A stretch of 64,000 bases of DNA from Pristiophorus japonicus (taxonomy: Eukaryota). The first letter of the stretch is position 1; each line of letters begins with the position of its first letter. The stretch is from the NCBI RefSeq assembly GCF_044704955.1, contig NC_091982.1, forward strand, positions 167,462,001-167,526,000, read 5' to 3'. The position numbers and the translations under genes are program-made. This document shows positions 18,356 to 59,629 of this stretch, piece by piece. The notes under the pieces are model-generated. The model searched no databases, was not told the DNA's origin, and saw only the letters and a list, made by a program, of their open reading frames with translations.

Positions 18356-20546
18356 GCTTTACCAACATTGAATTAGTATCTGCAAAATGTAAGTAAACAG
18401 CTGCTAATTCTTATATTATCCATTGCCTTGAAAGTCTTGTCTAATCCACAAATCTAATCTGAACCACTTTCGGAGCACATCTAAACATTCCTCTCTTGTT
18501 CCCTTGTAGCTCCAAACACTGGGGATGGTGTCTGGATATGAGTTTGCCAGGCCAGAGAAAGTTGGACTTTCCACTGGGATTCTCCGACAAGAAATTACCT
18601 CAGCCTCTGGAGAAACAGCACCAACAACTAAGAACGCTATTTATTTGAGCTTTGGGGGGGGGGGGGGGGGGGGTTTCCTCGATCACGATCTGTGGTTACA
18701 GGAAATTGGGAGAACACCATTGAAATTTCGGGTACAAGTAACTCTGCATTAACCAGGGACTGGCCTTGGGACCGCTCCGGTCTACATAACTTCGTACCGC
18801 ATCACATGATCCATGCAACAACTGAACCGACAGCAAACACACGGTTTGAATTGGTTGCTCAGGAAAGTCTCAGTGGCTTATGTTTTAAAAGATGACGGCA
18901 TTATTACCCCCGTTAGTGTGAATGATGATACTGTCATCACAGAGCCTTGTTGTAGTAATACTGTAGAAACCACTTTGCAGTTTGTGCTGGTTAGAAAACA
19001 TGAGTAAATGGGAGGACTCACAGGAAATGCCCTTTTGTGACACTGTGTGGTGAAGTGACAGTACATGAGACTGAACTGTAGGTTTTTAACCAGAAGATAA
19101 TTTCTGTGCATCAAGTGACTGCCAGGGTTGAATAAAAATAACAATTGAAAGATAATTACATTTTTAATTATGAGGATGTTATTAGTACAATAAAGCACAA
19201 AATTACAACTTGTTTATTGTCTTTGGACATATTAATTATACTATTGGACTCTTTTTAGTTATATTCAATCACAGCTTAAGATTGTGACAAAAAATACTCC
19301 ACAAACCCAACTGTGAACAGAACAAATCAATTTATGAAGCAATTATCATGTGTTTGGACCAATTAGTATTTATATTTAAACGGGATAATTACAAGGCTGA
19401 TTTTTTTCACCTCATCACAGCTGCACTTTACACCAGTGAGCCCAAGGACTACAGGTGTAAAGGATCCCACAATTCCTTGCTTTGAGCCAGGGAAACAAAG
19501 GCAGCAGATTGGAGAATTCTGGCATTGTTACCTGGCAAGATGTTTCAGTATTGTCGCTGCCTCAAATCTCCTCAACTTCCAGCAGTCAGTGCTGTTCCTT
19601 CAGCCATGCTGATAGACAGTGCCAAATCTAGGAGAAGAAGTTTCGGAGTAAAAGTTCCTTCTCCCTGTCCACTCCCCTGTTGCTCCACCCTCCAAGGAGA
19701 TTTCCAAACAGATGAGAGCAAGCAGCCAGTTTGCCTTCCACTTAATTACATTTAATTTAAGTTTCCATTCAACAGAATTGTTTTATCACATGGAATCCCG
19801 ACACAATGGGTTGACTGAGAAAAATAATGGAACATGAGGTGCAAGTGTTACAAACCAGGCTGGTAATAGGGTATTAAAATTCTTTGGGGTATTTATGTAT
19901 ATATCGTTTAAGATTAAATGGAGCCATAAAAATTTAGGAAGTGAGTGGATTCCCAGCTTGGGTTACAGCAAAGGTTAAATATAGAACACAAAGTCAATCC
20001 ATTCTAGAAATTATAAATATATATATTTTAAAAACCTGAAACAGATGCAGGCAAATTACAAACAGAATAAATAATAGCATATGTCACCCTTTAAACCATA
20101 GTCCCTGGTGTGAGTGACATTAGTAAATACAGTTGGAAAAAAGTACCGTTGAAGATTAATTAAAAAAATCTGCGGCCATTTCTATGTGCTTCACAGTGCA
20201 AAGACTCAGTGAGTTACTGTGCATCATGTCATGAAAATAATCAGCATTGTTCTCTTCAATCAATTTAAAAGGCCACGGCCTTCATTCAATCTGTCTCCAA
20301 AATATATTAACAAAAATTAGTTTTCCCACCTGACAGTGAAGACAATTTAAATGCAAGATGTAGTAAAGGATCATTGTTTTGTTGACATATATCTATGGGC
20401 TAATATAGCTATAATTCCATGTTTTACATAGGACAGCTATAGTATGTTATATGGAAGTAAGTTACAATGTAATACATTTTACAAAATAGCACTTTGTAAA
20501 TACATGTCATTCATCATCAATCAGTAATTTAAACGGTTATCTCCTT

Positions 20547-20579
20547 TTTATTTTCGTTCACAAATTTAGTTTTTTTATT
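20547..20579 (-). terminator. Candidate polyadenylation signals of chemokine copy 1
   Basis: Two AATAAA on the minus strand (20547-20552, 20574-20579), ~570-600 nt after the stop codon; both conserved in copy 2. Confidence 0.5.
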
Positions 20580-21148
20580 AAATAAAAAAAAGGTTTGTCC
20601 TGCATCAGAAAGGCAAGAGGTTATTTTTAATAATTTAAAAAAAAATGTTTTGGCTGCGATACCCACCCCGGGAGTGACCTGGGAACACTTACTGTGTAGG
20701 CCCACACAGGCTGATGTCCCCAATTTCTGACACTGCAGATAGAGTCATGTCCCAGAACAGGTCATTGTCTTCAGGAGACTAGGTGAGAAAATTGTGTGGG
20801 GGAGCGGGAAAGATTCGAGTCTTGATCTGGTTCTCTCAGTGAGAAAGTACCAGTTGATCCTTGTCCATACAGATGCTGACGCACCCTATCAATATTTGTA
20901 GTATTAATAAAACCAAGTGAGTAAATCAGTGATGTGTAGAAGCAGCACCGACACTAAAGAACTAATTTGACTGATGGCGGTACAAAAACATTTAAATTGT
21001 ATGTTTGCACCTTCCTTGCATTTGTGAATGTTCTGATTACCAGGAAACTTGTAGGAAAGCAGACAAAAGAAAAATGATTTTTGAAAGCTTTCTTTGCTGT
21101 GTAGACAGTTGTGGTTTCCTCATTGGTCACAAACAATCCACATCATCT

Positions 21149-21245
21149 TCATCCCCTCTGCTTTTTTTGGGAAAGCTTTTCCACAAGTTTCTTCACTCGT
21201 TCATCCTTCGGATTGGAGCAAATCCATCTATCCTTCAGTCTGAAT
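21149..21245 (-). CDS. CC chemokine copy 1, exon 3
   Basis: Acceptor ttccttttcag; encodes (V)FRLKDRWICSNPKDERVKKLVEKLSQKKQRG*, including the 4th Cys; phase 2 matches exon 2. Confidence 0.95.
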
Positions 21246-21352
21246 CTGAAAAGGAACAGACTAGATTTATTTACAGGGATAACTATATATGAAACAGGCT
21301 GCCAATAAAAAGGTATTTAATGCCAGAGACGGATAGTGTTCTGAGTACTTAC

Positions 21353-21473
21353 ACCACCGCTTTAATCCTGCAGCGACCATCATTTTCCTGTATTTTATAA
21401 TCCTTGATTTTTTTGAAGTTAGGGACCGACTTTGAGTATTTCAGGCAGCAGCTCTTCGGTTGTCCAGTCGGAG
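21353..21473 (-). CDS. CC chemokine copy 1, exon 2
   Basis: Acceptor tttgctttccag, donor gtaagt; encodes (A)PTGQPKSCCLKYSKSVPNFKKIKDYKIQENDGRCRIKAV(V), with the CC motif and 3rd Cys. Confidence 0.95.
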
Positions 21474-24081
21474 CTGGAAAGCAAAAATAAAAGGCTTGTG
21501 ATTCACTGCTTTAAGGAAAGAAAGGGAAAATCCTGGAGTAAATAAATTAAGGTCAGACTGATGAGATGAACTTTTTTTTGTCCGCTGGCTGCAAGGGTCC
21601 TTTGTAAAAAACCAAATCCCAGTGAGCACAAGCCCGCAGCACAAAATTGCCCTCCTTCCGTGCTAAACTGACAATCTCACAGACCGCAGGAGGGCTGGTG
21701 TGGCACAGCAACATATCACATTGCTGCATTAGGGCGTATTCTTCTGAGGTTGAGGCACATTGCTGGAGTAGATTATAGGGAGGTTTAATTGTGCCTTACC
21801 TGACTGCTTGATACTGACATGGGGTCTCTGAAATGGTGTAATTTTCCAGTGCTAAATTTCCCTTACATTGACACAAATATTTTTAAAAAGCAGTTGTTAC
21901 TTTAATGAGCACTTGTGTAGATACCTAGGCTGCCTTGTCTTGTACTAAAAGCAGAATTTAAAAGAGGAAATATACACTGAACATCCTTATAATTTATCTG
22001 CAGTGTCTTCTGAACCAATAAAGATGTAAGACTTAATATACTGAGCATTAAACAGTAGGTTATTGACATCTTGTTGGCCAAAGTACGACCCATAATTAAA
22101 ACATCGCAACTGGGATTGTGCTCAGCTATAAAGAACGACCTTTAAAGTGGTTGTATGACAGGGGACGGTAGAAAAGTGGTTATGTTACTGGACCAGTAAT
22201 CCAGAGGCCTGGACAAATAATTCAGAGACGTGAGTTCAAGTCCCACCATGGCAGCTGGGGAATTTATATTCCGTTAATTAGATAAATCTGAAATAAAAAG
22301 CTAATATCAGTAATGGTGACGATGAAATTATCGGATTGTCATAAAAACCCATCTGGTTCACTAATGTCTTTTTAGGGAATGAAATCTACCATCCTTGCCT
22401 GGTCTGGCCTACATGTGACAGCAATGTGGTTGTCTTTTAACTGCACAGTGAAGTGGCCACTCAGTTGTTAAAAAAAAGGCTACAAAAATTCAATAAAACC
22501 GGACAGACCACCCAGCATCGACCTTGGAAATAACTACAGACACGACAACTGCCCATCCATTCAGTCGAACCTGCAAAGTCCTCCTCACAAATATCTGGGG
22601 AGTTGTGCCAAAGTTAAGGGAGCTGTCCCACAGACTAGTCAAGCAACAGCTTGACATAGTCATACTCACAGAATCATATACTTTTCAGCGAATATCCCAA
22701 AATCTTCCATCACTATCCCTGGGTATGTCCTGTCTCACCAGCGGGACAGAACCACCAGGGGTGGCAGCACAGTGGTATGCAGTCAGGAGGGAGTGGCCCT
22801 GGTAATCCTCAACATTGACTCCGGACCTCATGAAGTTTCAGGTCAAGCATGGGCAAGGAAACTTCCTGCTGATTACCACCCACCACCCTCCCTCAGCTGA
22901 TGAATCAGTACTCCTCCATGTTGAACACCACTTGGAAGAAGCACTGAGAGTAGCAAGGGCAAAGAATGTACTCTGGGTGGGGGAATTCAATGTCCATCAC
23001 CAAAAGTGGCTCGTTAACACCACTACTGACCGAGCTGGCCGAGCCCTGAAAGACATATCTGCCTGACTGGGCCTGCGACAGGTGGTGAGAAAAGCAATAC
23101 AAGGGAAAAACCTACTTGACCTCGTGCTCACCAATTTCCATGTCGCTGATGCATCTGTCCATGACAGCAGGGGTAGCAGTGACCACTGCACAGTAATTGT
23201 GGAGACGAAATCCTGTCTTCACACGGAGGACACTCTCCATTGTGTTGTGTGACAATATCACCATGCTAAATGGGATAGATTCAGAGCAGATCTAGCAGCT
23301 CAAAACTGGGCATCCATGAGGCGCTGTGGGCCATCAGCAGCAGCGGAATTGTATTCCACCACAATCTGTAACCTCATGGCCCGGCATATCTCTCACTCTG
23401 CCATTATCATCAAGCCAGTGGACCAACCCTGGTTCAATGAGAATATGCCAGGAGCAGCACCAGGCATAGCTAAAAAGGAAATGTCAATTTGGGAAAGCTG
23501 CAACACAGGACTAAAAAGCAGAAGCAACATGTTATGAACGGTGCTAAGCGATCCCACAATCAACAGATCAGATCAAAGCTCATGTCCTGCCACATCCAGT
23601 CCTGAATGGTGATGGACAATTAAATAACCAACGGAAGAAGGAGGCTCTGTGAATATCCCCATCCTCAATGATGACGGAGCCCAGCATGTGAGTGCAAAAG
23701 ACAAGGGCGAAACGATTGCAGCCATCTTCAGCCAGAAGTGCCATGTGGGTGATCCATATCGGCCTCCTCCTGAGGTTCTCACCATCACAGAAGCCAGTCT
23801 TTGACAAAAGAGCTGAATTCCAGAGGTGTGGAACGAGTGACTGCTCTTGACATCAAGGCACCATTTGACCAAGTGTTTCATAAATGAGCCCAAATAAAAT
23901 TAAAGTCAATGGGAATCAGGGGAAAACTTTCCACTGGCTGGAGTCATACCTAGCAAAAATTAAGATGGTTGTGTTGGTTGTAGGTCAATCATCACAGCCC
24001 CAGGACATCAATGCAGGAGTTCTTCAGGGCAGTGTCCTAGGCTCAATAATCTTCAGCTGCTTCATCAATGATCTTCCCTCT

Positions 24082-24333
24082 TGTAAAGTCCTGTCCCCTC
24101 AGTACAGATTCACACGAGGCATGTAGTGAAGTCAAGGTCACTCTGGACCTGCACCTTTATTTCACAGCTCTGGAATGCTGCACTTGCCTGAGACCTCTGC
24201 TTATATACCTCTCTCTTGCAAGTGCACCCCTGGTGGTAAGGTATGCTGGTGGTTACAGGTCATATCTTATTACAGTCATGTATAGCATGTTAGGATACAG
24301 TTATATATATATAATAATGTAAGATACATGACA
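24082..24333. mobile_element. Solo LTR
   Basis: TG...CA, 252 bp, perfect 5-bp TSD CCTCT (24077-24081 and 24334-24338), interrupting the LINE RT. Confidence 0.88.
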
Positions 24334-24635
24334 CCTCTATCATAAGATCATAAGTGAGTATGTTCGCTGGTGACTGCAGCACCAGGCATAGCTAAAAAGG
24401 AAGTACGAATTTGGAAAGCTGCAACACAGGACTACATGCATCTAAAAGGTAGAAGAAGCAAGCTATGAACAGAGCTAAGTGATCCCACAATCAACGGATC
24501 AGATCAAAGCTCAGTTCCATTCGCAACTCCTCAGATAATGAAACAGTCCATGCCCACATGCAGTAAGATCGGGACGACATTCAGGCTTGGGCTGATAAAT
24601 GGCAAGTAACATTCACGCCACACAAGTGCCAGGCA

Positions 24636-25835
24636 TCGGTTAAGAAGCTGTCTATCTGTGTCTTAAATTTATTCAATGTCCCGGCTTTCACAGCTCTCCG
24701 AGGCAGCGAATTACATAGATTTACAACTCTATGAGAGAAGAAATTCCTCCTCATCTCAGTTTTAAATAGGCGGCCCATATTCTAAGATTATGCCCTATAG
24801 TTCCAGTCTCCCGTATTAGTGGAAACACCCTCTCTGCATCCACCTTGTCAAGCCCCCTCATAATCTTATACATTTCGATAAGATCACCTCTCATGCTTCT
24901 GAATTCCAATGAGTAGAGGCCCAACCTCCTCAAACTTTCCTCATAAGTCAACCCCCTCATCTCCGGAATCAATCTAGTGAAACTTCTCTGCACTGCCACC
25001 AAAGCAAATATATCCTTTCGTAAATATGGAAACCAAAACTGGACACAGTATTCCAGGTGTGGCCTCACCAATACCCTATATAACTGTAGCAAAACTTCCC
25101 TGCTTTTATACTCCATCCCCTTTGCAATAAAGGCCAAGATTCCATTCACCTTCCTGATCACTTGCTGTACCTGCATGCTAAACTTTTGTGTTTCATGCAC
25201 AAGTACACCAAGGTCCCGCTAAACTGCAGCACTTTGCAATTTTTCTCCATTTAAATAATAACTTGCACTTTGATTTTTTCTGTCAAAGTGCATGACCTCA
25301 TACTTTCTAACATTATACTCCATTTTTGCCCACTCATTTAGGCTGTCTATGTCCTTTTGCAGATTTTTTGTGTCCTACTCACACATTGCATTTCCTCCCA
25401 GCTTTCATCCCGACTCTATTTTCTGTTCGTTAGCCAATCCTCTATCCATGCTAATATATTACCCCAACCCTGTCTTTTATCTTGTGCACTAACCTTTTTT
25501 GTGGCACCTTGTCAAATGCCTTCTGGAAATCCAAATACACCACATTCACTGGTTCCCCTTCATCCACCCTGTTTGTTACATCCTCAAAGAATTCCAGCAC
25601 ATTTGTCAAACATGACTTCCCTTTCATAAATCTATGCTGACTCTGCCTGACCAAATTATGCTTTTCCAAATGTCCTGCTACTGCTTCTTTAATAATGGAC
25701 TCCAACATTTTCCCAACCACAGATTAGGCTAACTGGTCTCTCTAGTTTCCTGCTTTTTGTCTGCCTCATTTTTTTAAATAGCGGCATTACATTTGCAATT
25801 TTCCAATCTGCTGGGACCCCCCCAGAATCCAGGAA
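24636..25835 (-). mobile_element. CR1 LINE fragment in intron 1 of copy 1
   Basis: Minus ORFs 25451-25720, 24751-25200 and 24581-24778 with CR1 RT motifs. Confidence 0.9.
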
Positions 25836-27081
25836 ATGCACTGCTGCAACTTGCCAAAGCTTCTTCGGCAATACCTCCCAAAAACACGACCTCTACCAAC
25901 TAGAAGAAGGGTAGCAGGCACAGGGGAGCACCATCACCTACAACTTCCCGTCCAAGTCACACACTATCCTGACTTGGAAATATATTGCTGTTCTTTCATT
26001 GTCAATGGGTCAAATCCCTGGAACTCCCTCCCTAGCAGCACCGTCAGAGTACGCTCACCACACGGACTGCAGCAGTTGAAGTCGCCGGCTCACCACCACA
26101 TTCTCAAGGGTAATTAGGGATGGGCAATGAATGCCGGCATTGCCAGTGACACCCACATCCCAGGAACTAATTTTTAAAATGACGGAGGTACAAGATGAGC
26201 ACTGATCCCGAAACTGTGCTGTTGATTCTATCTGTCATCGTAAGACAACAATTGCACATGTAGATAAGCACATTAGAACATCTGAAGTTTTAGTGTTGGT
26301 TCAGATTGGCACATGTTCCTTCAATAGCATCTTGCACTGGTCATTGGTGATCCCTTATGACAGCACTTGCTAAAGATTGCAATAGTCCTTGCTGGTATGA
26401 GTAAAGACCAGTACTGAACACAAAGTGTACTGGAACCACACAGACCAGTACCAGGCTAATGATAAATTAATTAGTCTATAGATAACAAAGGTGCAGTAAA
26501 TCTCCAGCACTATTCCGGTAGATAACTCTATGTTAATGTGGTTGTGGTTTTTTTTGGTTTAGAATCAGTTTGTTTCGAAATACACAGTTAGGTGTTGGAA
26601 CCTTGCTAACCATCTCCAGCCATCAATTTTATTTATATCATAATTGCTTTTCGAATAACATGAACCTGAATTGTGCTGTACGCACTTCTATAATAAATGC
26701 TTTATCCCCTTCAGCTAGTTTTTTCCCATGATTTAGTAATTGTTCAATTGAAGAAACTCAATTGAAAAAATGAAACTGCAGATGAACATGAAGGACTGGA
26801 ATATATTCTGTAACTTTTTGGATAAAATGTATCTTGCTAGTTTGCATAAAAACGATTGAAGTTTGCTTATATGTTCAGTACAGTCCTGTTAATGACATTG
26901 TTACACATACTGAAATTCGGGAACCAAAAACTTCAAACCCCATTCAGAGACGGGCAATCTGACAGGATTCTGTAGAATCTACGAGTTGTTACTCTTAAAA
27001 TTTGCTTAAGTTACGAGGTTTCTTAAAAGCAGACAGTAATCAGAACTAAGCAATAAAGAGGTACGGTGGGATTTCACTCAC

Positions 27082-27142
27082 CTGCTAACACAACCAAAGT
27101 GAAGACACTGAGGCCAATCAGTACTACAAGAAATTGTTTCAT
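27082..27142 (-). CDS. CC chemokine copy 1, exon 1 (signal peptide)
   Basis: MKQFLVVLIGLSVFTLVVLA plus G, then donor gtgagt; phase 1 matches exon 2; full protein is 92 aa. Confidence 0.92.
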
Positions 27143-27204
27143 TTTCTCGAAAAAGGTTTCCTCACTGGTGGAACTGATCTGAAAATCTAAACTTTCTTTG
27201 AATC

Positions 27205-27400
27205 GCAGCTTGTATATATCCTCTCAGATGGTCAGCTTCCTTTCTAAATTCCGTGGGTTTACTGTGCCCATGTGGAAAATCTGATAATGTAATCTGATAA
27301 GGTTAGTATACCCTGCCTGTTCATATTTAGCTGTTTCCTTTACATTTCTATTTGCATGAACCAACTATTCACGGAAGGCAGAGGCTTGGAGGCCAATGAC
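27205..27400 (-). promoter_or_regulatory. Proximal promoter of chemokine copy 1
   Basis: TATA-like at ~27212-27219, two TGATAA (~27282, ~27295), octamer ATTTGCAT 27350-27357, GAS TTCACGGAA 27368-27376, CCAAT 27393-27397. Motif matches only. Confidence 0.55.
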
Positions 27401-28619
27401 TGAGCAGCATTTATTTCTCACAAACTTCAGGTTGTTTTAGTTTTGATTGATGGCCAAGTCTCTTTTAACGTGTTCAGAAAAGTTATTTCTACCTGGTTAG
27501 TTTGGTTTCTTAATTTTCTGCAGCTTACCTTCTCAGTATATCTCATTAGCATATCTCTGCTCCTTATCTAAACCACACAACTGCCTGCAAAGAGCAACAG
27601 AGAACAAATTGATAACGCTCCCATACTCAGTGTAAAAGTATGACTATCAGGTTAGAAAATATATTTAGTTCTTTGTAACAAGGTCAACTGAGGTGCAGAA
27701 GTTAGATGCCCACATTGACGGACTTTCATGTCATGCAGTGGAACCTCGTTTATCCTGTAGAACCTATAAGGTTGCAGATAATTGAGGCTCTAGCTGACCC
27801 AACCTTGCCTGGCCTAAAGCTGCATCCAAGGTGGGTAAAAGATTTTCCTGACACAAACCTAAGTTGAAGCCCAAAGCAAAAATAAAAGACTGGATATGGG
27901 TCCCCAAACCAACATGATTCATAGTTGCTGCCCAATATAGTAGAAGTTGCAGCAAAGTGCAGGAAAAAGACCCAAAGTTATAGGCAAGAATTTAACAATC
28001 CCAACTTGATGCTGCAAATCCCACTCATTTGGTGAGCAGACAATAAAGAATACAGATAATGAGATCTTTTTTTCTGTTTCTCTTTCTTTTTTCTTTCTTT
28101 CTACCTTTATTTCTGCCTTTCTTTCTAACATTCCACATTCTAACCATTCTATTGGTAAAGAATGCTCACATGAATTCCCTATTAGATTCATTAGTGACTA
28201 TCATATTTATTCTCCAGAACTGTTAATTCATATTTTAATTTGAAGAACAATATGATTAAAAGTAGTCAATTGATTGGACTAAGGAAGGAAGGATTGGATT
28301 ATACAGGATACCTTCTCTATAATTGTGTAGAGAGCTGTACACATGGAGTGTTGCAAAGTACAGGGGCTTTAAAAGATTGTTTGTTTAATGTGTTCTCTAT
28401 TGTAAAGGGAATCATGGGCAGTGTGGTAGATGAGGGCCTTCTGCTATGGAACTAGGAGCGTTGCTTTTTGAACACTGCATCCATTGGCAATATGGGCTGA
28501 CCATGTGCCATAATGCGAGGTCAGCTCCTTTATACAATATCGCCGTGCTCCTGGCATACAGCGCATGAAGCATAAGGGTAGGTATTGGTTTCTGGAGGTT
28601 TTGAGGCTCCAGTTTCAAT

Positions 28620-29825
28620 GGTGAGAATTTTAACGTTGAAGAGATCATGGATTTCGGTGCAGTTGCGCTGTTAAGTTCACCGAAAATGTCAGCGTGTCTT
28701 GAAGTCAGCACCAATCCTGCCGACTTCCGGGATTAACACAGGCACGTTCAAACTGGTTACGTGTAACCCTCTGAAGAAAAGTGGTATACCACTTTAAATA
28801 TGCAAATTGTTCCAGTTTCCTGTTATTTCAAACTCCTTAAATCATGGCGAGAACACAAAGCAAATTCACGGGGCTCATTAAAATTCAGGTAAATACTGCA
28901 ATCAATACTCAGTGCTTACAGCTACTTTTTTACCTACCACTAGGAAAGGGATTGGTCACAGTACTTGTGAAGAGAGGTTAGTTTCTACATGTTAGTCACT
29001 TGAGACTCAGGTCAGGATGTGTGGTGCCGTGGCTGCCTTAGATTGGACATTGGAGGAGGATGACGATGAGCATCAGGAGGAGCAGCAGCCTGCTGTTGAG
29101 AGAACTGCAGGTGTTGGATAGAGAGGGGAGCAGCGTCGGGGTGGAACTGGCAGGAGGCACTACCCATGTAACTGTGTACAGCCAGAGGCTGAGCTCCCTT
29201 GGCCTGTGGGAAGAGCAGTGCCTCCGAAGGCCGAGGTTGTCGTGTCAGGTGGTGGCAAAATCCTGCAGGCTCCTAGAAGAAGACCTGCTAACTGCTGGAC
29301 CTGGTGTCCACACATTATCAGTGGTTGGCAAGGTCGGGAGGTAGTGCAGAAGGTCACGGAGGTTGGGAAGAAGAGTGCCGGAGTCTGGGCGAAGATCGGG
29401 TGGGGCCCGTGGAGAAGGACATGGGGAGGAGGTCGCATCGCAGAGAGAGTTGGTGTTCGATCAGCGGGGAGGTTAACAGGGTAGATTGGGAGACGGGAGG
29501 GAAGCACTCCTGCTCCTGGACGACAAGCAGTGCTGGAAAGGCACTTACCTGTTCCATCTAGTAATTCTCCGCTGTCTTCAGCTGTCCCAGAGGTCTGGGA
29601 AACCCGGCAAGCCAGTGTGAAAGTTGGAACAGCGATACAATCTAAAGCACGCTGTCTCATTATAATATTTTAATGAGGGATCCGTCTCCTGAAAGTGGAT
29701 TGGTCGCCCGCCCCACGCATCTCCGTCAAAAGCAGATGTCGGCAGGTTGGGTTCCAATTTGAAATTGTTTGAATCAGAGCTTCCCACCTGACTCAAACTG
29801 GGGGGTTTGGTTAAAATTATTCCCT
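28620..29825 (+). mobile_element. Degenerate Harbinger-derived element
   Basis: EEQCLRRPRLSCQVVAKSCRLLEEDLL...TLSVVGKV resembles the Harbinger transposase N-terminus; imperfect TIRs ggtgagaattttaac / gttaaaattattccc. Confidence 0.65.
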
Positions 29826-29949
29826 GCATCACTCAGTTCAGCAGTTGATTTAGACTCAAGGGAGGATTTTAACTCCCGCCACTTAGCAGTAATAAGGTAG
29901 AACATGTTAAAATGTTGAGGCTCTTTTACCTAGTCCTATACTGGCCCAT

Positions 29950-34190: not shown

Positions 34191-36818
34191 TACTTGAACA
34201 ATGTTTTTACATTGGGTACTGTCTGGAAATAATTTGCATACTGATGATTGAAGAATTGTGACAAATCCTGTGCTATTTCCTCTCCGACTTTCAACAGCCA
34301 TGGGTATGTGCCATAAGGCCCAACGACTTTTGCAGCTTGAGATGTGCTATTTTTTCAGCAACCCATTGAAAATACATTCTGGTATTTGAAAATAAAATTT
34401 TCAACACTTGAAATAAAAAGAATAAATTGCAGCTCTTACACATCCTCCACCACTGTTCACTTTTTCAAAGAAGGGTGATAGAGCATTCACCCATTAACTA
34501 TATTCCTGCCTGACACCAATTTATTTTTTTCCCATTCTATTAGTTTGCTTTACATTCCAGCTGATAAAGATATGATCCTTAAAACGTTATGTTATCTCTC
34601 TCTCTATTGGCCACACCAACATTGAATTAGTATCAACTAACTGTAAGTAAATTGCTGCTAATTCTCATATTATCCATTGCTTTGAAAGTCTTAGCTAATC
34701 CACAAATCTAATCTGAACCACTTTCGGTGCTCATCAAAACATTCCTCTTTTGTTCCCTTGTAGCGCTAAGCACTTGTATTGGTGTCTGGGTATGAGTTTG
34801 CCAGGCCAAAGAAAGCTGGACTTTCCACTGGAAATCACCTCAGCCTCTGGAGAAACAGCATTACCGGCTAAGAACGCTATTTATTTGAGTTGTGGGGGGT
34901 TTCCCCGATCACTAGCCATGGTTACAAGAAAGTGGGACAACATCTTGGAAATTTCAGGTACAAGTAACTCTGCATTAACCAGGGACTGGCCTTGGGACCT
35001 CTCTGGTCTACATAACTTCGACCGCAGCACATGATCCATCCACCAATTGAACTGGCAGCAAACACAGGCGGTTTGAATTGGTTGCTCAGGAAAGTCTTAG
35101 TGGCTTACGTTTTAAAAGCTGATGGCATTACTACCCCCGTTAGTGTGTTTGATGATACTTTCGTCACAGAGCCTTGTTGTAGTAATACTGTAGAAACCAC
35201 GTTGCAGCTTGTGCTGGTTAGAAAACACGAGTAAATGGGAGGACTCAGAGGAAATGCCCTTTTGTGACATTGTAGTGACGTGTCAGTGCATGAGACTGAA
35301 CTGTAGGTTTTTAACCAGCAGATAATTTCTGTGTATAAACAGTGACTGCCAGTGTTGAAGAGAAGTAACAGAACTGAAAGATAATCGAAAGATAATCATC
35401 TCCCTAAGTATGAGGATGTTATTAGTACAATAAAGCACTAAATTACAACTTGTTTATCATCTTTGGAAATATTAACTGTACCAGTGGATTATGTTTAGTT
35501 GTATTCAATTACAGCTTAAGTTTGTGACAAAAAATACTTCACTAACCCAGTTATAAACAGAACAAAATCAATTTATGTAGCAAATATCATGTGTTTGGAC
35601 CAAATAGTATTTATATTTAAATTGGATGAGATTTACATGAGGACAAGGCTGATTTTTTGTACCTCTTCACAGCTGCACTTTACACCAGTGAGCCCGAGAA
35701 CTACAGGTGTAAAGGGTCCCACAATTCTGTGCTTTGAGCCAAGGAAACAAAGGCAGCAGATTGGAGAATTCTGGCATTGTTACCTGGCAAGATGTTTCAG
35801 TATTGTCACTGCCTCAAATCTCCTCAACTTCCAGCAGTCAGTGATGTTCCTTCAGCCATGCTGATAGACGGTGCCAAATCTGGGATAAGAAGTTTCGGAG
35901 TAAATGTTCCCTCCCCCTGTCCCCTCCCCTGTCGCTCCACCCTCCAAGGAGATTTCCAAACAGATGAGAGCAAGCAGCCAGTTTGCCTTCCACTTAATTA
36001 CATTTAATTTAAGTTTCCATTCAACACAATTGTTTTATTATCACATGGAATCCTGACACAACGGGTCGACTGAGAAAAATAATGGAACATGAGGTGCAAG
36101 TGTTACAAATCAGGCTGGTAATTGGGTATTAAAATTCTTTGGGGTATTTATTTACATATCTTTTAAGATTAAATGGAGCCATAAAAATTTAGGCAGTGAT
36201 TGGATTCCCAGCTTGGGTTATAGCAAAGGCTAATAATAGAAAACAAAGACAATCTGTTCAACAAATTATAAATATATATATATACACACTTTAGAAACTT
36301 GATTAAACAGGCGCAGGCAAATGAAAAACAGAATAAATAACAGAACAGGTCACCCTTTAAACATAGTCCCTGGTTTGGGGGACATTAGAAAATACAGCGA
36401 AAAAATAGCTTTGAATAATCATTTTAAAATTCGGCGGCCATTTCTATGTGCTTCACAGTGCAATGACTCCATGAGTTACTGTGCATCATGTCATGAACAT
36501 AATCAGCATTGTTCTCTTCAATCAATTTTAAAGGGCCACAGACTTCATTCAATCTGTTTCCAAAATATGTCAACAAACAAAAATGGTTTCCCCTGCCTGT
36601 CAGTGAAGACACTTTAAATGTAAGAAGATGTAGTAAAGGATCATTGTTTTATTGACGTATGTCTATGGGCTAATATAGCTATAATTCTATGTTTTACATA
36701 GGACAGCTATAGGATGTTATATGGAAGTAAGTTACAATGTAACACATTTAACAAAATAGCACTTTGTAAATGCATATGTCATTCACCATCAATCAGTAAT
36801 TTAAACGGCTATCTCCTT

Positions 36819-36851
36819 TTTATTTTCATTTTCAAATTTAGTTTTTTTATT
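36819..36851 (-). terminator. Candidate polyadenylation signals of chemokine copy 2
   Basis: AATAAA on the minus strand at 36819-36824 and 36846-36851, at positions equivalent to copy 1. Confidence 0.5.
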
Positions 36852-37419
36852 AAGGTTTGTCCTGCATCAGAAAGGCAGGAGTTTTTCTTTGTTACAAAAA
36901 TAAAATGTGATGTTTTGGCTGCGATACCCACCCCTGAGTGGCCTGGGAACACTTACTGTGTAGGCTCACACAGACTAAGATCCCCAATTTCTGACACTGC
37001 AGATAGAGTCATGCCCCAGCACAGGTCATTGTCTTCAGGAGACTAGGTGAGAAAATTGCGTGGGGGAGTGGGAAAGATTCGACCCTATGGTCTGGTTCTC
37101 TCAGTGAGAAAGTACCAATTGTTCCTTGTCTATACAGAGGCTGACACACCCTATCGATATTTGTAGCATTAATAAAACCAAATGAGTAAATCAGTGACGT
37201 GTAGAAGCAGCACCGACAGTAAAGAACAGCATCAAATTTGACTGATGGCGGTTCAAAAAATTGAAATTGTATGTTTGCACCTTCCTTGCATTTGTGAATT
37301 TTTTGATGACCAGGAAACTTGTAGGAAAGCAGACATTAAAAAAAAAGATTTTTGAAAGCTTTCTTTGCTGTGCAGACAGTTGTGGTTTCTTCATTGGTCG
37401 CAAACAATCCACATCATCT

Positions 37420-37516
37420 TCATCCCCTCTGCTCCTTTTGGGAAAGCTTTTCCACAAGTTTCTTCACTCGTTCATCCTCTGGATTAGAGCAAATCCACCT
37501 GTCCTTCAGTCTGAAT
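37420..37516 (-). CDS. CC chemokine copy 2, exon 3
   Basis: Acceptor ttccttttcag; encodes (V)FRLKDRWICSNPEDERVKKLVEKLSQKEQRG*. Confidence 0.95.
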
Positions 37517-37619
37517 CTGAAAAGGAACAGGTTAGATTTATTGATAGGAATAACTACAGGTGCCTTATAAGGGTATTTAATGCCAGGCTCCAGAGATGGA
37601 CAATGTTCTGAGTACTTAC

Positions 37620-37740
37620 ACCACCGCTTCAATCCTGCAGCTGCCATCATTTTCCTGTATTTTATAATCCTTGATTTTTTTGAAGTTAGGGACCGACTTT
37701 GAGTAATTCAAGCAACAGCTCTTCTGTTGACCAGTAGGAG
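37620..37740 (-). CDS. CC chemokine copy 2, exon 2
   Basis: ag/gtaagt boundaries; encodes (A)PTGQQKSCCLNYSKSVPNFKKIKDYKIQENDGSCRIEAV(V). Confidence 0.95.
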
Positions 37741-38424
37741 CTGGAAAGCAAAAATAAAAGGCTTGTGATTCACTGCTTTAAGGAAAGAAAGTGAAAATCC
37801 TGCAGTAAATAAATTTAAGACCAGACTGATGCAATTAACATGTTTTAGTCCGCTGTCTGTAAGGGTCCTTTGTGAAAAACCAAATCCCAGTGAGCACGAG
37901 CCCACAGCACAAAATTGCCCTCCTTCAGTGCTAAACTGACAATCTCACAGACCGCAGGAGGGCTGGTGTGGCACAGCAACATATCACATTGCTGCAGTAG
38001 GAGGCTGAGGCACATTGCTGGAGTAGATTAGAGGGAGGTTTAATTGTGCCTTACCTGACTGCTTGATACTGGCATTGGGTGCCTGAAATCTGAAATAGTA
38101 TAATTTTCCAGTGCTAAATTTCCCTTACATTAATTGACACACAATTATTTTTAAAAATCTATTACTTTAATGAGCACTTGTGTAGATACCTAGGCTGCCT
38201 TGTTCTGTACTAAAAGCAGAATTTAAAAAGGAAATGTACATTGAACATCCTTATAATCTATCTGGTGATTCTTCTAAACCAATAAAGATATAAGACTTAA
38301 TAGACTGAGCATCAAAAAATGTATTATTGATATCTTGTTGACCAAAGTGCTGACCATTAATTAAAACATCCCAACTTGTATTGTGCTCAGCTTTAAATAA
38401 CAGCTTTTAACATTAATGTATGAC

Positions 38425-40660
38425 AGGGGATGGTAGGAAAGTGGTTATGTTACTGGACCAGTAATCCAGAGGCCTGGACAAATAATCCAGAGACACGAGT
38501 TCAAATCCCACCATGGCAGCTGGGGAATTTAAATTCAGTTAATTAGATCAATCTGAAATAAAAAGCTAATATCAATAATGTTGGCTATGGAACTATCGGA
38601 TTGGCATAAATTCCCATCAGGTTCATTAATATCCTTTTAAGAATGAAATCTGCCATCCTTACCTGATCTGACCTACATGTGACAGCAATGTGGTTGTCTT
38701 TATACTGCACACTGAAATGGCCACTCAGTTGTAAATAAATGCTACAAAAATCAGTAAAACCAGATGGATCATCCAGCATCGACCTTGGAACTAACGACAG
38801 ACACAACAATGGCCCACCCATTCAGTCGATCCTGCAAAGTCCTCCTCACAAATATCTGGGGAGTTGTGCCAAATTTGGGAGAGCTGTCCCACAGACTAGT
38901 TAAGCAACAGCTTGACATAGTCATACTCATAGAATCATAATTTTCAGCTAATGACCTTAACTCCTCCATCACTATCCCACCAGCAGGACAGACCTACCAG
39001 CGGTTGTGGCACTGTGCTATACAGTCGGGAGGGAGTGACCCTGGGAGTCCTCAATATTGACTCAGGACCCCATGAAGTTTCATGGCTTCAGGTCAAGCAT
39101 GGGCAAGGAAACTTCCTGCTGATTACCACCAACCACTCTCCCTCAGTTGATGAAGCAGTACTCCATGTTGAACACCACTTGGAAGAAGCACTGAGTATAG
39201 CAAAGGCACAGAATGTGCTCTGGGTGGGGGAATTCAATGTCCATCACCAAGAGTGGTTCGTTAACACCACTACTGACTGAGCCCTGAAGGACATATCTGC
39301 CAGACAGGGCCTGCGACAGGTGGTGAGAAAACCAACACAAAGGAAAAACCTACTTACCTCGTGCTCACCAATGTCCATGTCGCTGATGCATCTGTCCATG
39401 ACAGCATGGCTAGCAGTGACCACTGGACAGTCATTGTGGAGACAAAATCCTGTCTTTACACGGATGACACTCTCCATTGTGTTGTGTGACAATACCACCA
39501 TGCTAAATGGGATAGATTCAGAACAGATCTAACAGCTCAAAACTGGGCATCCATGAGGCACTGTGGGCCATCAGCAGCAGTAGAATTGTATTCCACAACA
39601 ATCTGTAACCTCATGGCCCGGCAAATCCCTCACTCTACCATTATCATCAAGCCAGTGAACCAACCCTGGTTCAAAGAGAATATGCCAGGAGCAGCACCAG
39701 GCATAGCTAAAAATGAGGTGCCAATTTGGGGAAGCTGCAAGACAGGACTACATCATATAAAAAGCAGGAGTAGCATGCTATAAACAGAGCTAAACAATCC
39801 CACAATCAAATCAAAGCTCTGAAATCCTACCACATCCAATCGTGAATGGTGGTGGACAATTAAATAACGGAAGGAGGAGATTCTAATACTATCGCCATCT
39901 TCAATGGTGACGGAGCCCAGCACGTGATTGAAAAAGACAAGGCCGACGTGATTGCAACCATCTTCAGCCAGAAATTCCATGTGCATGATCCATATCGGCC
40001 TCCTCCTGAGGTCTCCACCATCACTGCAGCCAGTCTTGAGACATTGACTATCGCCAACAAGCAAAAGTCTAATCAACGGCATTACCATTACCAAATCCCC
40101 CACCATCAACATCCTGGGGGGGTCACCATTGATCAGAAACTTAACTGGACCAACCACATAAATACTGTGGCAACAAGAGCAAGTCGGAGGCGTGTTCCAA
40201 CAACACTCAAGAAGCTCAACACCATCCAGGACAAAGCAGCCCACTTGATTGGCAACCCATCCAACACCTTACAACACACTTTCTCCACCACCAGTGCACC
40301 GTGGCTGCAGTGTGTACAACATGCACTGCTGCAACTCGCCAAAGCTTCTTCGGCAGCACCTCCCAAACCTACGACCTCTACCACCAAGGACAAGGACAGC
40401 AGGTGCATGGGAACACCATGCCTACAGGTTGCCCTCTAAGTCACACACCATCCCGACTTGAAAATATATTGCCATTCCTTCATCGTTGATGGGTCAAATT
40501 CTTGGAACTCCCTCCCTAACAGCACTGTTGGAGTACGCTCACCACACGGACTGCAGTGGTTCAAGAAGCCAGCTCACCACGACCTTCTCAAGGGCAATTG
40601 GGGATGGGTGATAAATGCTGGCATTGCCAGTGACACCCACATCCCAAGAATGAATTTTAA
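38425..40660 (+). mobile_element. tRNA-headed LINE in intron 1 of copy 2 (paralog of 22160-26170)
   Basis: Same insertion site and both ends shared with the copy in unit A; different internal deletions. Confidence 0.85.
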
Positions 40661-41497
40661 AAATGACGGAGGTACAGGATGAGCACTGATCCCGACACCA
40701 TGCTGTTGATTCTATCTGTCATCGTAAGACAACAATTGCATATGTAGATAAACACATTAGAACATCTGAAGTTTTAGTGTTGGTTATGGTTGGCACATGT
40801 TCCATCAGTAGCGTCTTGCACTGGTCATTGGTGATCCCTCATGACAGCACTTGCTAAAGATTGCAATAATCCTTTCTGGTATGAGTAAAGACCAGTACTG
40901 GAACCACACAGACCAGTACCAGGCCGTCGATAAATTAATTAGTCTATAGGGAACGAAGGTGCAGTAAACCTCCAGTTCTATTCCAGTAGATAATTATGTT
41001 AATGTGGTTGTGGGTTTTGTTGGTTTAGAATCAGTGTGCTTCGAAATACACAACCTTGCTAACCATCTCCAGCCACCAATTTTATTTATATCATAATTGC
41101 TCTTCCAATAACATGAAATTGATTTGTGCTGTACACACTTTTATAATAAATACTTTATCCCCTTCAGCTAGTTTTTTTCCCCATGGTTTAGGTAATTGTT
41201 CAATCGAAAGAAATGAAACCGCTGAGGAACATAAAGGATTGGAATATATTCTGTAACTTTTGGATAATATATGTCTTGCTAGTTCGCAAAAAAACTATTG
41301 AAGTTTGCTCGTATGTTCAATACAGTCCTGTAAATGACATTGTTACACGTACTGAAATCCACTCAGACAGAAAATCTGATAGATTCTACAGAATCTAAGA
41401 GTTGTTAGTCTTAAAATTTGCTTAAGTTACAAGGTTTCTTAAAATCAGACAGTAAACTGAAATAAGCAATAAAGAGATACAATGGGATCTCACTCAC

Positions 41498-41558
41498 CTG
41501 CTAACACAACCAAAGTGAAGACACTGAGGCCAATCAGTACTACAAGAAATTGCTTCAT
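41498..41558 (-). CDS. CC chemokine copy 2, exon 1 (signal peptide)
   Basis: MKQFLVVLIGLSVFTLVVLA plus G, then donor gtgagt; one synonymous difference from copy 1. Confidence 0.92.
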
Positions 41559-41619
41559 TTTCTCGAAAAAGATTTCCTCGCTGGTGGGACTGATCCAAAA
41601 ATCTAAACTTTCTCTGAAT

Positions 41620-41840
41620 CGCAGCTTGTATATATATATCCTCTCAGATGGTCAGCTTCCTCTCTAAATTCCGTGAAGGGCGGTGGTGATGGGGAGGTGG
41701 GTTTACTGTGCCCATGTGGAAAATCTGATAAGGTAACCATATTAGTACACCCTGCCTGCTCATATTTAGCTGTTTCCTTTACATTTCTGTTTGCATGAAC
41801 CAACTATTCACGGAAGGCAGAGGCTTGGTGGCCAATGACT
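41620..41840 (-). promoter_or_regulatory. Proximal promoter of chemokine copy 2
   Basis: TATA repeat ~41628-41639, GAS TTCCGTGAA 41669-41677 next to GGGCGG, one TGATAA, GAS TTCACGGAA 41807-41815, CCAAT 41832-41836. Motif matches only. Confidence 0.55.
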
Positions 41841-43014
41841 GAACAGCATTTATTTCTCACAAACTTCAGGTTGTTTTAGTTTTGATTGATGGCCAAATCT
41901 CTTTTAACGTATTCAGAAAAGTTGTTTCTTCCCGCTTGGTTTGATTTCTTAATTTTCTGCAGCTTATCTTCTCAGTATATCTCATTAGCATATCTCTGCT
42001 CCTTATCTAAACCACACAACTGCCTGCAAAGAGCTACAGAGAACAAATTGACAACGCTTCCATACTCAGTGTAAAAGTATGAGCATCAGGTTAGAAAATA
42101 TATTTAGTTCTTGTAGCAAGGTCAACTGAGGTGTAGAAGTTAGATGTCCACATTGACGGACTTTCATGTCATGCAGTGGAACCTCGTTTATCCTGTAGAA
42201 CCTATAAGGTTGCAGATAATTGAGGCTCCAGCTGACCCAACCTTGCCTGGCCTAAAGCTGCATCCAAGGTGGGTAAAAGATTTGTCCCGACACAAACCTA
42301 AGTTGAAGCCCAATGCAAAAATAAAAGACTAGACCTGGGTCCCTAAACCAACATGATTCATTGTTTCTGCCCAAAGTGGGTAGAAATTGCAGCAAAATGC
42401 AGGAAAAAGACCCAAAGTTATAGCCAAGAATTTAACAATCCCAACTTGATGCTGCAAATTCCACTCAGTGAGCAGACAATAAAGACTATAGATAATGATA
42501 TCTTTTTCTTTCATTCATTCGTCCTTTCTTTCTAACATTCCACATTCTAACCATTATATGGGTAAAGAATTTCCACATGAATTCTCTATTAGATTCATTA
42601 GTAACTATCTTATATTTATTCTCCAGAACTGTTTATTTCAAATTAAAATATAAATTCAATATGATTAAAAGTATTCAATTGATTGGACTAAGGAAGGATG
42701 GATACCTTCTCTAATTGTGTAGAGAGCTGTACACATGGAGTGTTGCAAAGTACAGGGGCTTTAAAAGATTGTTTTTTGTATACATTCTCTATTGTAAAGG
42801 GAACCATGGGCAGTGTGGTAGATAATGAGGGCCTTATGCTATGGAACTAGCTGTGTTGCTTTTTGAACACTGCATCCATTGGCAATATGAGCTGACCATG
42901 TGCCATAATGAGAGGTCAGTTCCTTTATACAATATCGCCGTGCTCCTGGTATACAGCGCATGAAGCATAGGGGTAGGTATTAGTTTCTGGAGGTTTTGAA
43001 GTTCCAGTTTCAAT

Positions 43015-44304
43015 GGCGAGAGTTTTAACATTGAAGAGATCATGGGTTTTGGTGCAGTTGGGGTGTTTATTTCACCGAAAAAATCAACGTGTCCTGAAGC
43101 CGGCTCCAATCCTGCCGACTTCCGGGATTAACACAGGCACGTTCAACTGGTTACGTAACCCACTCAGGGGAGATGGGATACCAATTTATATATTCAAATT
43201 GCTCCAGTTTCCTGTTATTTTAAACTCCTTAGAAATTTAATGGCACATCCACGGGTTTCCCGGGCTTTCTAAAATTCGCCATTGCATCCCTGGCGAGAAC
43301 ACATAGCAAATTCACGGGGCTCATTAAAATTCAGGTAAATACTGCACTCAATACTCAGTGCTTACAGTCACTATCTTACCTACCCTTAGGAAAGGGGTTG
43401 GTCACTGTACTTGTGGAGAGAGGTTAGTTTCTACATGTTGGACACTTGAGACTCAGGTCAGGATGTGTGGTGCTGTGGCTGCCTTAGATTGGACATTGGA
43501 GGAGGATGACGATGAGCATCAGGAGGAGCAGCAGCCTGCTGTTGAGAGAGCTGCAGGTGTTGGGCAGAGAGGGGAGCAGCGCAGGGGTGGAACTTGCAGG
43601 AGGGACTACCCTTGTAACTGTGTACAGCCAGAGGCTGAGCTCCCTTGACCTGTGGGAAGAGCAGTGCCTCCGAAGGCCGAGGTTATCATGTCAGGTGGTA
43701 GCAAAAACCTGCAGCCTCCTAGAAGAAGACCTGCTCACTGACGGACCTGGTGTCCACACATTACCAGTGGTTGGCAAGGTCGGAGGGCAGTGGAGTAGGT
43801 CACGGAGGTTGGGAAGATGATTTCTGGAGTCTGCGGCGAAGATTGGGTGGGGCCCGTGGAGAAGGACATGGGGAGGAGGTCGCGGGCTGTGGAGGACATC
43901 GGGAAGGCACTGCATCGCAGAGAGGGTTGGTGTTCAATTAGCGGGGAGGTTAACAGGGTAGATTGGGAGACCAGAGGGAATCAACTGCTCCTCCTGGACA
44001 ACAAGCAGTGCTGGAAAGGCACTTTGCTGTTCCATCTAGTAGTTCTCCAGTCTCTTCAGCTGTAGGGTTTCCAGAGGCCCGGGAAACCTGGCCGGTATGA
44101 AAGCTGGAACAGCAATAAAATCTGAGTCACGCAGTCTAATTAAAATATTTCAATGAGGGAGCCTGAAAGTGGATTGGTCGCCCACCCCATGCCCCATCTC
44201 TGTCAAAACTAGGTGTAGGCAGTTTCAGTTCCAATTTGAAATTGTTTGAATTGAGCTTCCAACCCGACTCAAACCTGCCCACTTCAGGGGTTAAAATTAT
44301 TCCC
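43015..44304 (+). mobile_element. Degenerate Harbinger-derived element (paralog of 28620-29825)
   Basis: ORF 43506-43820 EEQCLRRPRLSCQVVAKTCSLLEEDLL...TLPVVGKV; same termini as the unit A copy. Confidence 0.65.
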
Positions 44305-44589
44305 TGCATCACTCAGTTTAGCAGTTGGTGTAGAGACTTAAGGGAGGATTTTAACTCCCTCCGCTTAGCAGTAATAAACCGCTACAAAAACAATATGAAG
44401 TGATTATCTGCACGAATATTGTCGTGTCCTTCTGTGCATGTGTGGTCGGACCCATACCTTTCTGCGCATGGGCACTGGTGCCGAAGTCAGGCCGCGCGCA
44501 TTTTCAGTACCCCCACAGTGCAGAGCACCATGGAGCCATGCTTTGTCCAGCTCCGTGGATCAAGGCCCCGGAGTAGCTTGGATCGAAAG

Positions 44590-58799: not shown

Positions 58800-59629
58800 T
58801 AGGAGTATAATATTGGAAAGTGTGAGGTCATGCACTTTGGCAGAAAAAAATCAAAGAGCAAGTTATTATTTAAATGGAGAAAGATTGCAAAGTGCTGTAG
58901 TACAGCGGGACCTGGGGGTACTTGTGCATGAAACACAAAAGGTTAGTATGTAGGTACAGCAAGTGATCAGGAAGGCCAATGGTATCTTGGTCTTTATTGC
59001 AAAGGGGATGGAGTATAAAAGCAGGGAAGTCTTGCTACAGTTATACAGGGTATTGGTGAGGCCACATCTGGAATACTGCGTGCAGTTTTGCTTTCCATAT
59101 TTACGAAAGGGTATACTTACTTTGGAGGCAGTTCAGAGAAAGTTCAATAGGTTGATTCCGGAGATGAGGGGTCTGACTTATGACGAGAGGTTGAGTAGTT
59201 TGGGCCTCTACTCATTGGCGTTCAAAAGAATGAGAGGTGATCTTATCGAAACGTATAAGATTATGAGGGAGCTTAACAAGGTGGATGCAGAGAGGATGTT
59301 TCCTCTGATAGGGGAGATTAGAACTAGAGGGCATAATCTTAGAATAAGGGGTCACCCAATTAAAACTGAGATGAGGAGAAATTTCTTCTCTCAGAGGGTC
59401 GTGGATCTGTGGAATTTGCTGCCTCAGAGAGCTGTGGAAGCTGAGACATTGAATAAATTTAAGACAGAAATAGACAGTTTCTTAAACAATAAGGGAATAA
59501 GGGGTTATGGAGAGCGGGCAGGGAAGTGGAGCTGAGTCCATGATCCGATCAGCCATGATCATTTTAAATGGCGGAGCAGGCTCGAGGGGCCATATGGCCT
59601 ACTCCTGCTCCTATTTCTTATGTCCTTAT
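58800..59629 (+). mobile_element. CR1 3' fragment
   Basis: ORF 58963-59535 encodes the CR1 RT C-terminus; followed by 3' UTR and tail. Confidence 0.95.

Follow-up and report, generated by a model that had tools for sequence, protein, structure and literature searches.

Two neighbouring chemokine genes of Pristiophorus japonicus, here called copy 1 and copy 2, encode proteins that differ at six residues, five of which are basic in copy 1 and not in copy 2. The question raised by the locus is whether this one-sided pattern reflects a division of function between duplicates or the play of chance in a Lys-rich protein. An earlier note, made from the letters of the window (the whole stretch of 64,000 nucleotides analysed here), had favoured the former, proposing that the pair may have split into a matrix-bound or antimicrobial form and a more diffusible form.

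Gene structures and coding differences

Each gene consists of three exons on the minus strand with canonical GT-AG splice sites. In copy 1, the coding part of exon 1 (27082..27142) specifies the same leader peptide as in copy 2, with one synonymous difference; exon 2 (21353..21473) bears Pro6, Lys12, Arg34 and Lys38, and the coding part of exon 3 (21149..21245), which ends in TGA, bears Lys54 and Lys69. The first coding segment of copy 2 (41498..41558) runs from the ATG through a hydrophobic leader to a phase-1 donor. Exon 2 (37620..37740) carries the CC motif, the N-loop, the first strand, the 30s loop and the third cysteine, and encodes all of Gln6, Asn12, Ser34 and Glu38; the coding part of exon 3 (37420..37516), again closed by TGA, carries the fourth cysteine and the C-terminal helix with Glu54 and Glu69. 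Both open frames span 92 codons and begin with an identical hydrophobic leader of 20 residues, and the mature numbering used throughout assumes, rather than predicts, cleavage after residue 20.

Between the two coding sequences there are 17 differences in 279 nucleotides, 11 synonymous and six replacements. From copy 1 to copy 2, the latter are P6Q, K12N, R34S, K38E, K54E and K69E, at window positions 37725, 37706, 37642, 37630, 37479 and 37434 of copy 2, respectively. Mature copy 1 has 21 Lys/Arg and 7 Asp/Glu residues (net charge +14, pI 10.1), and mature copy 2 has 16 and 10 (net charge +6, pI 9.3). The list of six differences, five removing a basic residue, that the earlier note had given is thus exact on verified coordinates, and all its residue counts and net charges hold on recount.

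The genes lie within duplicated units at 18361..29895 (copy 1; blocks 18361-23801 and 25836-29895) and 34615..44377 (copy 2; blocks 34615-40037 and 40321-44377), the corresponding blocks being 86.8% and 84.9% identical. Intron 1 is 5608 nt long in copy 1 and 3757 nt in copy 2, and these unlike lengths, together with 9% non-coding divergence, rule out an allelic or false duplication. Pattern matching located candidate TATA-like boxes on the minus strand at 27213..27218, 76 nt upstream of the ATG of copy 1, and at 41633..41638, 80 nt upstream of that of copy 2; the first AATAAA past each stop codon, likewise a candidate signal on the minus strand, is at 20574..20579 for copy 1 and at 36846..36851 for copy 2, where another follows 27 nt further on. 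Compared with copy 1, the region upstream of copy 2 (41633-41720) has a longer TA run at the TATA-like box and an inserted C-rich stretch of 24 nt, which may point to regulatory divergence. A scan for kappa-B-like and ISRE-like motifs gave no match in the 600 nt upstream of either copy.

The window also holds, at 59864-62461 on the minus strand, an open frame of 865 codons whose reverse transcriptase, RNase H and integrase domains follow the Ty3/gypsy order. A 93-nt direct repeat (59628-59720 and 63902-63994) lies around this frame, and the two together are likely to represent an LTR retrotransposon.

Identity and relatives of the proteins

The spliced copy 2 product agrees letter for letter with a UniRef model, P0001, labelled eotaxin-like and assigned to P. 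japonicus. P0001 scores 59.1 bits against the Pfam IL8 family (PF00048), for which the curated cut-off is 21.3 bits, and exon 2 alone scores 35.9 bits for copy 2 and 32.3 bits for copy 1. The four cysteines, Cys9, Cys10, Cys35 and Cys50, of which the first two are adjacent, are present in both copies. A model of copy 2 built from eight sequences shows a sheet of three strands and, after it, a C-terminal helix, with a mean pLDDT of 78.5 and 88-95 in the core. Every match listed by Foldseek for the copy 2 model is a chemokine. CCL20 occupies ranks 2, 3 and 5-8 with an rmsd of 1.2-1.5 Å and 31-34% identity; when sequences are compared, it is outscored by the best solved matches, CCL17 and a reconstructed ancestor of XCL1. 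We conclude from the Pfam scores, the cysteines, and the predicted fold and structural matches of copy 2 that both copies are CC chemokines.

Going by the names of 10 representatives looked up among the 150 listed, related proteins occur in rays as well as in horn, bamboo, epaulette, smooth-hound, whale and elephant sharks. The proteins of horn, bamboo and epaulette sharks are 62-66% identical to copy 2, and that of the elephant shark is 47% identical. Their automatic labels (eotaxin-like, CCL17-like, CCL25-like) disagree among species (P0001-P0008, P0012-P0015, P0017, P0018) and do not establish orthology to the mammalian genes. Four or five CCL20-like genes (L051-L055, G000:C6:168315395-168495239) lie on the same contig some 0.7-0.85 Mb beyond the genes studied here; the one that was checked matches CCL20 best, and it is these neighbours, not copies 1 and 2 and their array, that are the better matches to CCL20. 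We assign the array to a CC chemokine lineage of cartilaginous fishes that has CCL20-like genes as linked neighbours, rather than to CCL20 itself. Tandem sets of chemokine genes specific to one lineage are described as common in PMC3568907.

A seven-gene array

A genome search, combined with 444 kb of surrounding sequence, revealed that the two genes are not an isolated pair, as the earlier note had treated them. About 280 kb hold seven genes that each retain the three exons and an open frame, with fragments besides (G000:C6:167291069-167648577, comprising L013-L043 and the window; gene B is inverted), and the four cysteines are retained in all seven. In genomic order, with charges counted over the first 72 mature residues, these are A (+7), B (+6), C (+11), copy 1 (+14), copy 2 (+6), F (+15) and G (+11). 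Complete genes beside lone pieces make this a birth-and-death pattern: an exon 1 lacking the usual donor is found at 167311227 and a further exon 1 at 167539467, an incomplete exon 3 interrupted by an in-frame stop codon at 167291600 and another exon 3 at 167604107. An isolated exon 2 with part of intron 2 and no splice acceptor context lies on another contig (L050, G000:C3:243388111-243388299). Genes A (G000:C6:167371805-167371939) and B (167420045-167420180) have lost the usual stop and extend to 106 residues with unrelated tails, that of A contributing two acidic residues which bring its net charge to +5. UniRef models are present for copy 2, A, C and F, and none surfaced for copy 1, B and G; an annotated model is no proof of expression, and the missing one casts doubt, if anything, on copy 1 rather than on copy 2.

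Copy 1, copy 2 and A, which lies outside the window, form a young trio within the array. Over 7963 non-coding sites the distances are 0.078 for A and copy 2, 0.090 for A and copy 1 and 0.092 for copies 1 and 2, and outgroup-polarised sites join A with copy 2 in 75 cases, A with copy 1 in 50 and copies 1 and 2 in 38. The coding sequence groups copies 1 and 2 (58% bootstrap), the 5' flank groups A with copy 1 (57%), and the intron (62%) and 3' sequence (75%) group A with copy 2. The trio is probably mosaic. Copies 1 and 2 are thus two of seven genes and not clearly sisters, the flanks of copy 2 being nearer to those of A, and as the trees conflict by region, some of the differences between copies may come from gene conversion.

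Direction of the charge change

The changes were polarised column by column using the relatives P0005-P0008 and the other array genes. All four relatives have Arg34, Lys38 and Glu69, and three of the four have Arg at positions 6 and 12; position 54 is Asn or Asp in all four, so that Glu54 of copy 2 is not exotic. Among the other five array genes, Arg6 is found in four, Lys12 in five, and Lys38 and Lys54 in four each, and across the whole array Ser34 and Glu69 each occur in four of seven. On this basis, the copy 2 path comprises R6Q, K12N, R34S (common with A), K38E and K54E, with a total of -7, and the copy 1 path R6P and E69K, with a total of +1; E69K is also found in F and G. The common state of the copies is inferred to have been about +13. 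Eleven single-domain cartilaginous-fish relatives have net charges of +8 to +15, the count excluding six multi-domain hits and one partial protein from one set of 14 viewed, and every one of the 11 lies above copy 2 and A. From the polarisation and this range we take copy 1 to be the ordinary form and copy 2 the derived one. Polarising by outgroups therefore sustains the loss of five basic residues from copy 2 and shows that the switch is lopsided, not symmetric (-7 versus +1).

A parallel is provided by A. All four residues unique to copy 2 lower the charge (R6Q, K12N, K38E, K54E; sum -6), as do four of the five unique to A (K27E, N31D, R36S, K38N; sum -5), so that each has gone down by 5-6 units through different substitutions, Lys38 having been lost separately, to Glu in copy 2 and to Asn in A. 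For B, C, F and G together, eight of 35 unique residues lower the charge and eight raise it, and B, although also at +6, has no directional excess in its unique residues.

Is the bias expected by chance?

Given six differences, a charge gap of at least 8 arose in 0.01-0.08% of mutation-spectrum simulations using flank rates (100,000 draws per setting), in 0.16% of family resamplings and in 0.07-0.13% of trials under site profiles, and at least five changes of the same sign with none opposite had P values of 0.004-0.027. That five of six changes should touch charge at all is ordinary here (family rate 0.59, P = 0.22). The directional bias survives these null models, so the objection that it is expected in such a Lys-rich protein does not hold at face value (P 0.0001-0.0016 for a gap of at least 8).

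These figures have to be read in the light of the way in which the example was found, the pair having been chosen after the pattern was noticed, and the grouping of A with copy 2 made likewise after the fact. Applied to the five charge changes, a simple sign test yields P = 0.0625, which is the minimum over the 21 pairs; four pairs fall below 0.1. Corrected for 21 pairs, the pairwise P values become 0.03-0.22, and 0.13-0.71 when five properties are also allowed for; moreover, of the charge-changing mutations in a basic protein, 64-73% lower the charge. A test free of the choice of pair was made by permuting 45 single-copy-unique residues among the seven copies. Charge was heterogeneous (P = 0.011), the other four properties gave P values of 0.26-0.70, and the family-wise value was 0.05. 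Copy 2 alone gave P = 0.002. With copy 2 removed, A alone gave P = 0.008 against the other copies, or about 0.05 allowing for six copies, and charge heterogeneity as a whole was not significant (P = 0.16). Overall, the charge signal looks real but is borderline after correction for the search over pairs and properties, in a survey that moreover takes in very many windows.

Selection, mutation and conversion

The reading frame of copy 2 is intact and constrained, dN/dS between copies 1 and 2 being 0.14, the lowest of 21 pairs. Changes in A and copy 2 were scored relative to whichever base is most frequent in the trio, a yardstick that mis-polarises a few sites (Pro5 of A and one synonymous base of copy 2 are probably ancestral). 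Eight charge-lowering, no charge-raising, two neutral and 10 synonymous changes were seen, where the flank rates predict 3.1, 1.8, 6.5 and 4.7, respectively. Charge-lowering changes thus exceed the flank rate (P = 0.014) and other replacements are suppressed (2 versus 8.4 expected, P = 0.01); lowering against all other replacements gives P = 0.0007, and lowering against raising P = 0.025. The rate of charge lowering is not raised relative to synonymous changes (P = 0.43), because these are also numerous (10 versus 4.7, mostly in copy 2). What emerges is a filter through which charge loss passes, and positive selection is not supported; the loss would be compatible with relaxed as well as with positive selection.

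A mutational bias toward Lys-to-Glu changes was considered and rejected: in the flanks, A>G and T>C are about equally frequent, and each of the three branches has more GC-to-AT than AT-to-GC changes. The coding changes of copy 2 fall in two clusters of five, each within about 25 nt (37706-37730 and 37479-37501), with a synonymous excess of eight seen versus 2.4 expected; when non-coding sequence was cut into 144 overlapping stretches of 216 nt, five of them had two such clusters. A search for a conversion donor for the first cluster, using a 27-nt pattern with at most one mismatch, matched only the cluster itself, and neither Asn12 nor Glu38 occurs in any of the translated loci among 10 candidate matches. 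At codons 53-54 (Pro-Glu), copy 2 (37479-37480) shares a two-base state with a lone exon 3 (G000:C6:167604015-167604107), which would reflect either parallel change or a short conversion.

Elsewhere in the array, C (G000:C6:167443614-167446229) and G (167646594-167648500) give a dN/dS of 1.9, and 3.0 for the mature part, values that rest on only five and three synonymous differences, and C has a rewritten 40s-50s region. To judge from these alignments, the C-G pair would be a better candidate for positive selection than copies 1 and 2.

Location of the changed sites

In the copy 2 model, strands span mature residues 23-29, 39-44 and 48-51 and the helix residues 56-71. The changed sites are placed at the N-terminus (6), in the N-loop (12), in the 30s loop (34), before strand 2 (38), before the helix (54) and at the helix end (69). 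BBXB-type basic motifs are present in both copies at residues 21-24 (KKIK) and 57-60 (RVKK); an extra one, KKQR (68-71), is found in copy 1, as in G, with a like motif in F. The 40s loop is identical in the two copies, and helix residues 56-68 carry +3 in both. In PMC5620614, glycosaminoglycan sites of chemokines are assigned to the 40s loop, the 50s loop and a patch at about residues 18-24, and they overlap receptor sites. Judged by alignment and secondary structure, sites 54 and 69 would border glycosaminoglycan-type regions in the model, and four of the six changed sites would fall in regions that meet receptors in other chemokines.

Weighing the explanations

Our preferred reading, to which we give a probability of roughly 0.45, is that copy 2 and A would be more soluble forms with weaker glycosaminoglycan binding and that copy 1 keeps the basic form. 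Its main competitor is chance together with the choice of example: in a Lys-rich, fast-evolving array with weak surface constraint, charge would drift and conversion would shuffle shared states. We consider this doubtful, although much that is reported above is in keeping with it, namely the sign test at 0.0625 and the corrected values of 0.13-0.71, the tendency of charge-changing mutations in a basic protein to lower charge, a charge loss no greater than the synonymous changes allow, the lack of significant heterogeneity without copy 2, the recurrence within the array of the variants at two of the five charge sites, and the packing of 10 copy 2 coding changes into two short stretches. Against it stand the pair-free test (0.011, or 0.05 over five properties) and the result for A alone (0.008), flanks without mutational bias, the suppression of other replacements in A and copy 2, and the failure of the 27-nt pattern to find a donor for the first cluster.

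Less likely again is that receptor binding or signalling, not glycosaminoglycan binding, was retuned, the lower charge being a by-product; we regard this as unlikely. In the model, sites 6, 12, 34 and 38 of copy 2 and sites 31, 34, 36 and 38 of A fall at the N-terminus, where the N-loop begins, or in the 30s loop up to the beginning of strand 2, and Lys38 was lost separately in the two. There are precedents: the 30s loop is reported to drive activation of CCR9 by CCL25 (PMC12361432) and to set the poses of CCL19 versus CCL21 on CCR7 (PMC13142946), and glycosaminoglycan and receptor epitopes overlap (PMC5620614). Contact changes need not lower charge, yet all eight unique charge changes in A and copy 2 do so, and K27E and K54E fall outside the receptor-contact region. 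Specialisation of copy 1 as a directly antimicrobial chemokine, with loss of that role by copy 2, is highly improbable. Copy 1 has a charge of +14 and the extra basic motif at the helix end, and several chemokines carry antimicrobial activity in the C-terminal helix (PMC3531597); its charge is nevertheless within the range of its relatives, its sole gain, E69K, is common to F and G, and copy 2 remains basic. Antimicrobial chemokines bind phosphatidylglycerol and cardiolipin and kill bacteria, and it is lipid binding that decides, the isoelectric point being an unreliable predictor, according to PMC12143392; charge or isoelectric point is called unreliable also in PMC3531597. The antimicrobial half of the earlier proposal, which was drawn from charge, is accordingly unsupported.

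For the other half, a split between matrix-bound and diffusible forms, the bias that survives the null models, the parallel in A and a mammalian precedent (PMC5620614) speak in favour; copy 2 is still basic, and it keeps two of the three basic motifs of copy 1. Reduced matrix binding of copy 2 and A might have come about as follows. Once duplication had produced the trio, copy 2 and A would have been free to lose surface basic residues, or even mildly pressed to do so, while selection kept purging other amino acid changes in both. Copy 2 would have shed five surface basic residues with its cysteines and core in place, and having lost them, it is likely to be less glycosaminoglycan-bound. Its lower charge would weaken retention on heparan sulphate and broaden the gradient; copy 1 would retain a tethered role, aided by the extra basic motif at its helix end. 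A bolder extension, that the array repeatedly yields low-charge copies under selection and offers graded ligands from tethered to diffusible over +6 to +15, is speculative and rather improbable in our view. If true, it would amount to a natural experiment on the evolution of gradient shape in the oldest jawed-vertebrate lineage. Near-identical copies spanning this range could in any case serve as a test set for the roles of net charge and of specific patches in heparan-sulphate retention, and the array could also test whether such tuning predates bony vertebrates. If the pattern is due to chance, what is left is an ordinary tandem chemokine expansion.

Comparison with known systems

A literature search, with most subscription journals outside its scope, returned no paper on this array and none for the genus name combined with chemokine. 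The closest counterpart is human CXCL4 and CXCL4L1, which, like copies 1 and 2, are recent neighbouring duplicates a few residues apart. According to PMC5620614 and PMC3394994, only three residues separate CXCL4L1 from CXCL4, and CXCL4L1 is soluble in essence; the three-residue difference is confirmed in PMC8775478. A difference in glycosaminoglycan retention is proposed in both pairs, and copies 1 and 2 resemble a glycosaminoglycan-divergent pair in that six of 92 residues differ and five basic residues are lost on the copy 2 path. The resemblance has its limits, since CXCL4 and CXCL4L1 are of the CXC class, their three changes lie in the C-terminal helix and the effect has been measured, whereas in copies 1 and 2 the replacements are scattered through the domain, with five of the six outside the helix. 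The GRO chemokines CXCL1, CXCL2 and CXCL3 resemble the array as a whole: PMC5627130 describes them as tandem duplicates that evolve in concert, are under purifying selection overall and vary in surface charge, the charge modulation affecting glycosaminoglycan-binding surfaces. Positively selected sites are reported there for the GRO genes, whereas in copies 1 and 2 positive selection is unsupported. Divergence in matrix binding among chemokine duplicates is thus already known in mammals, and the shark array would add a case.
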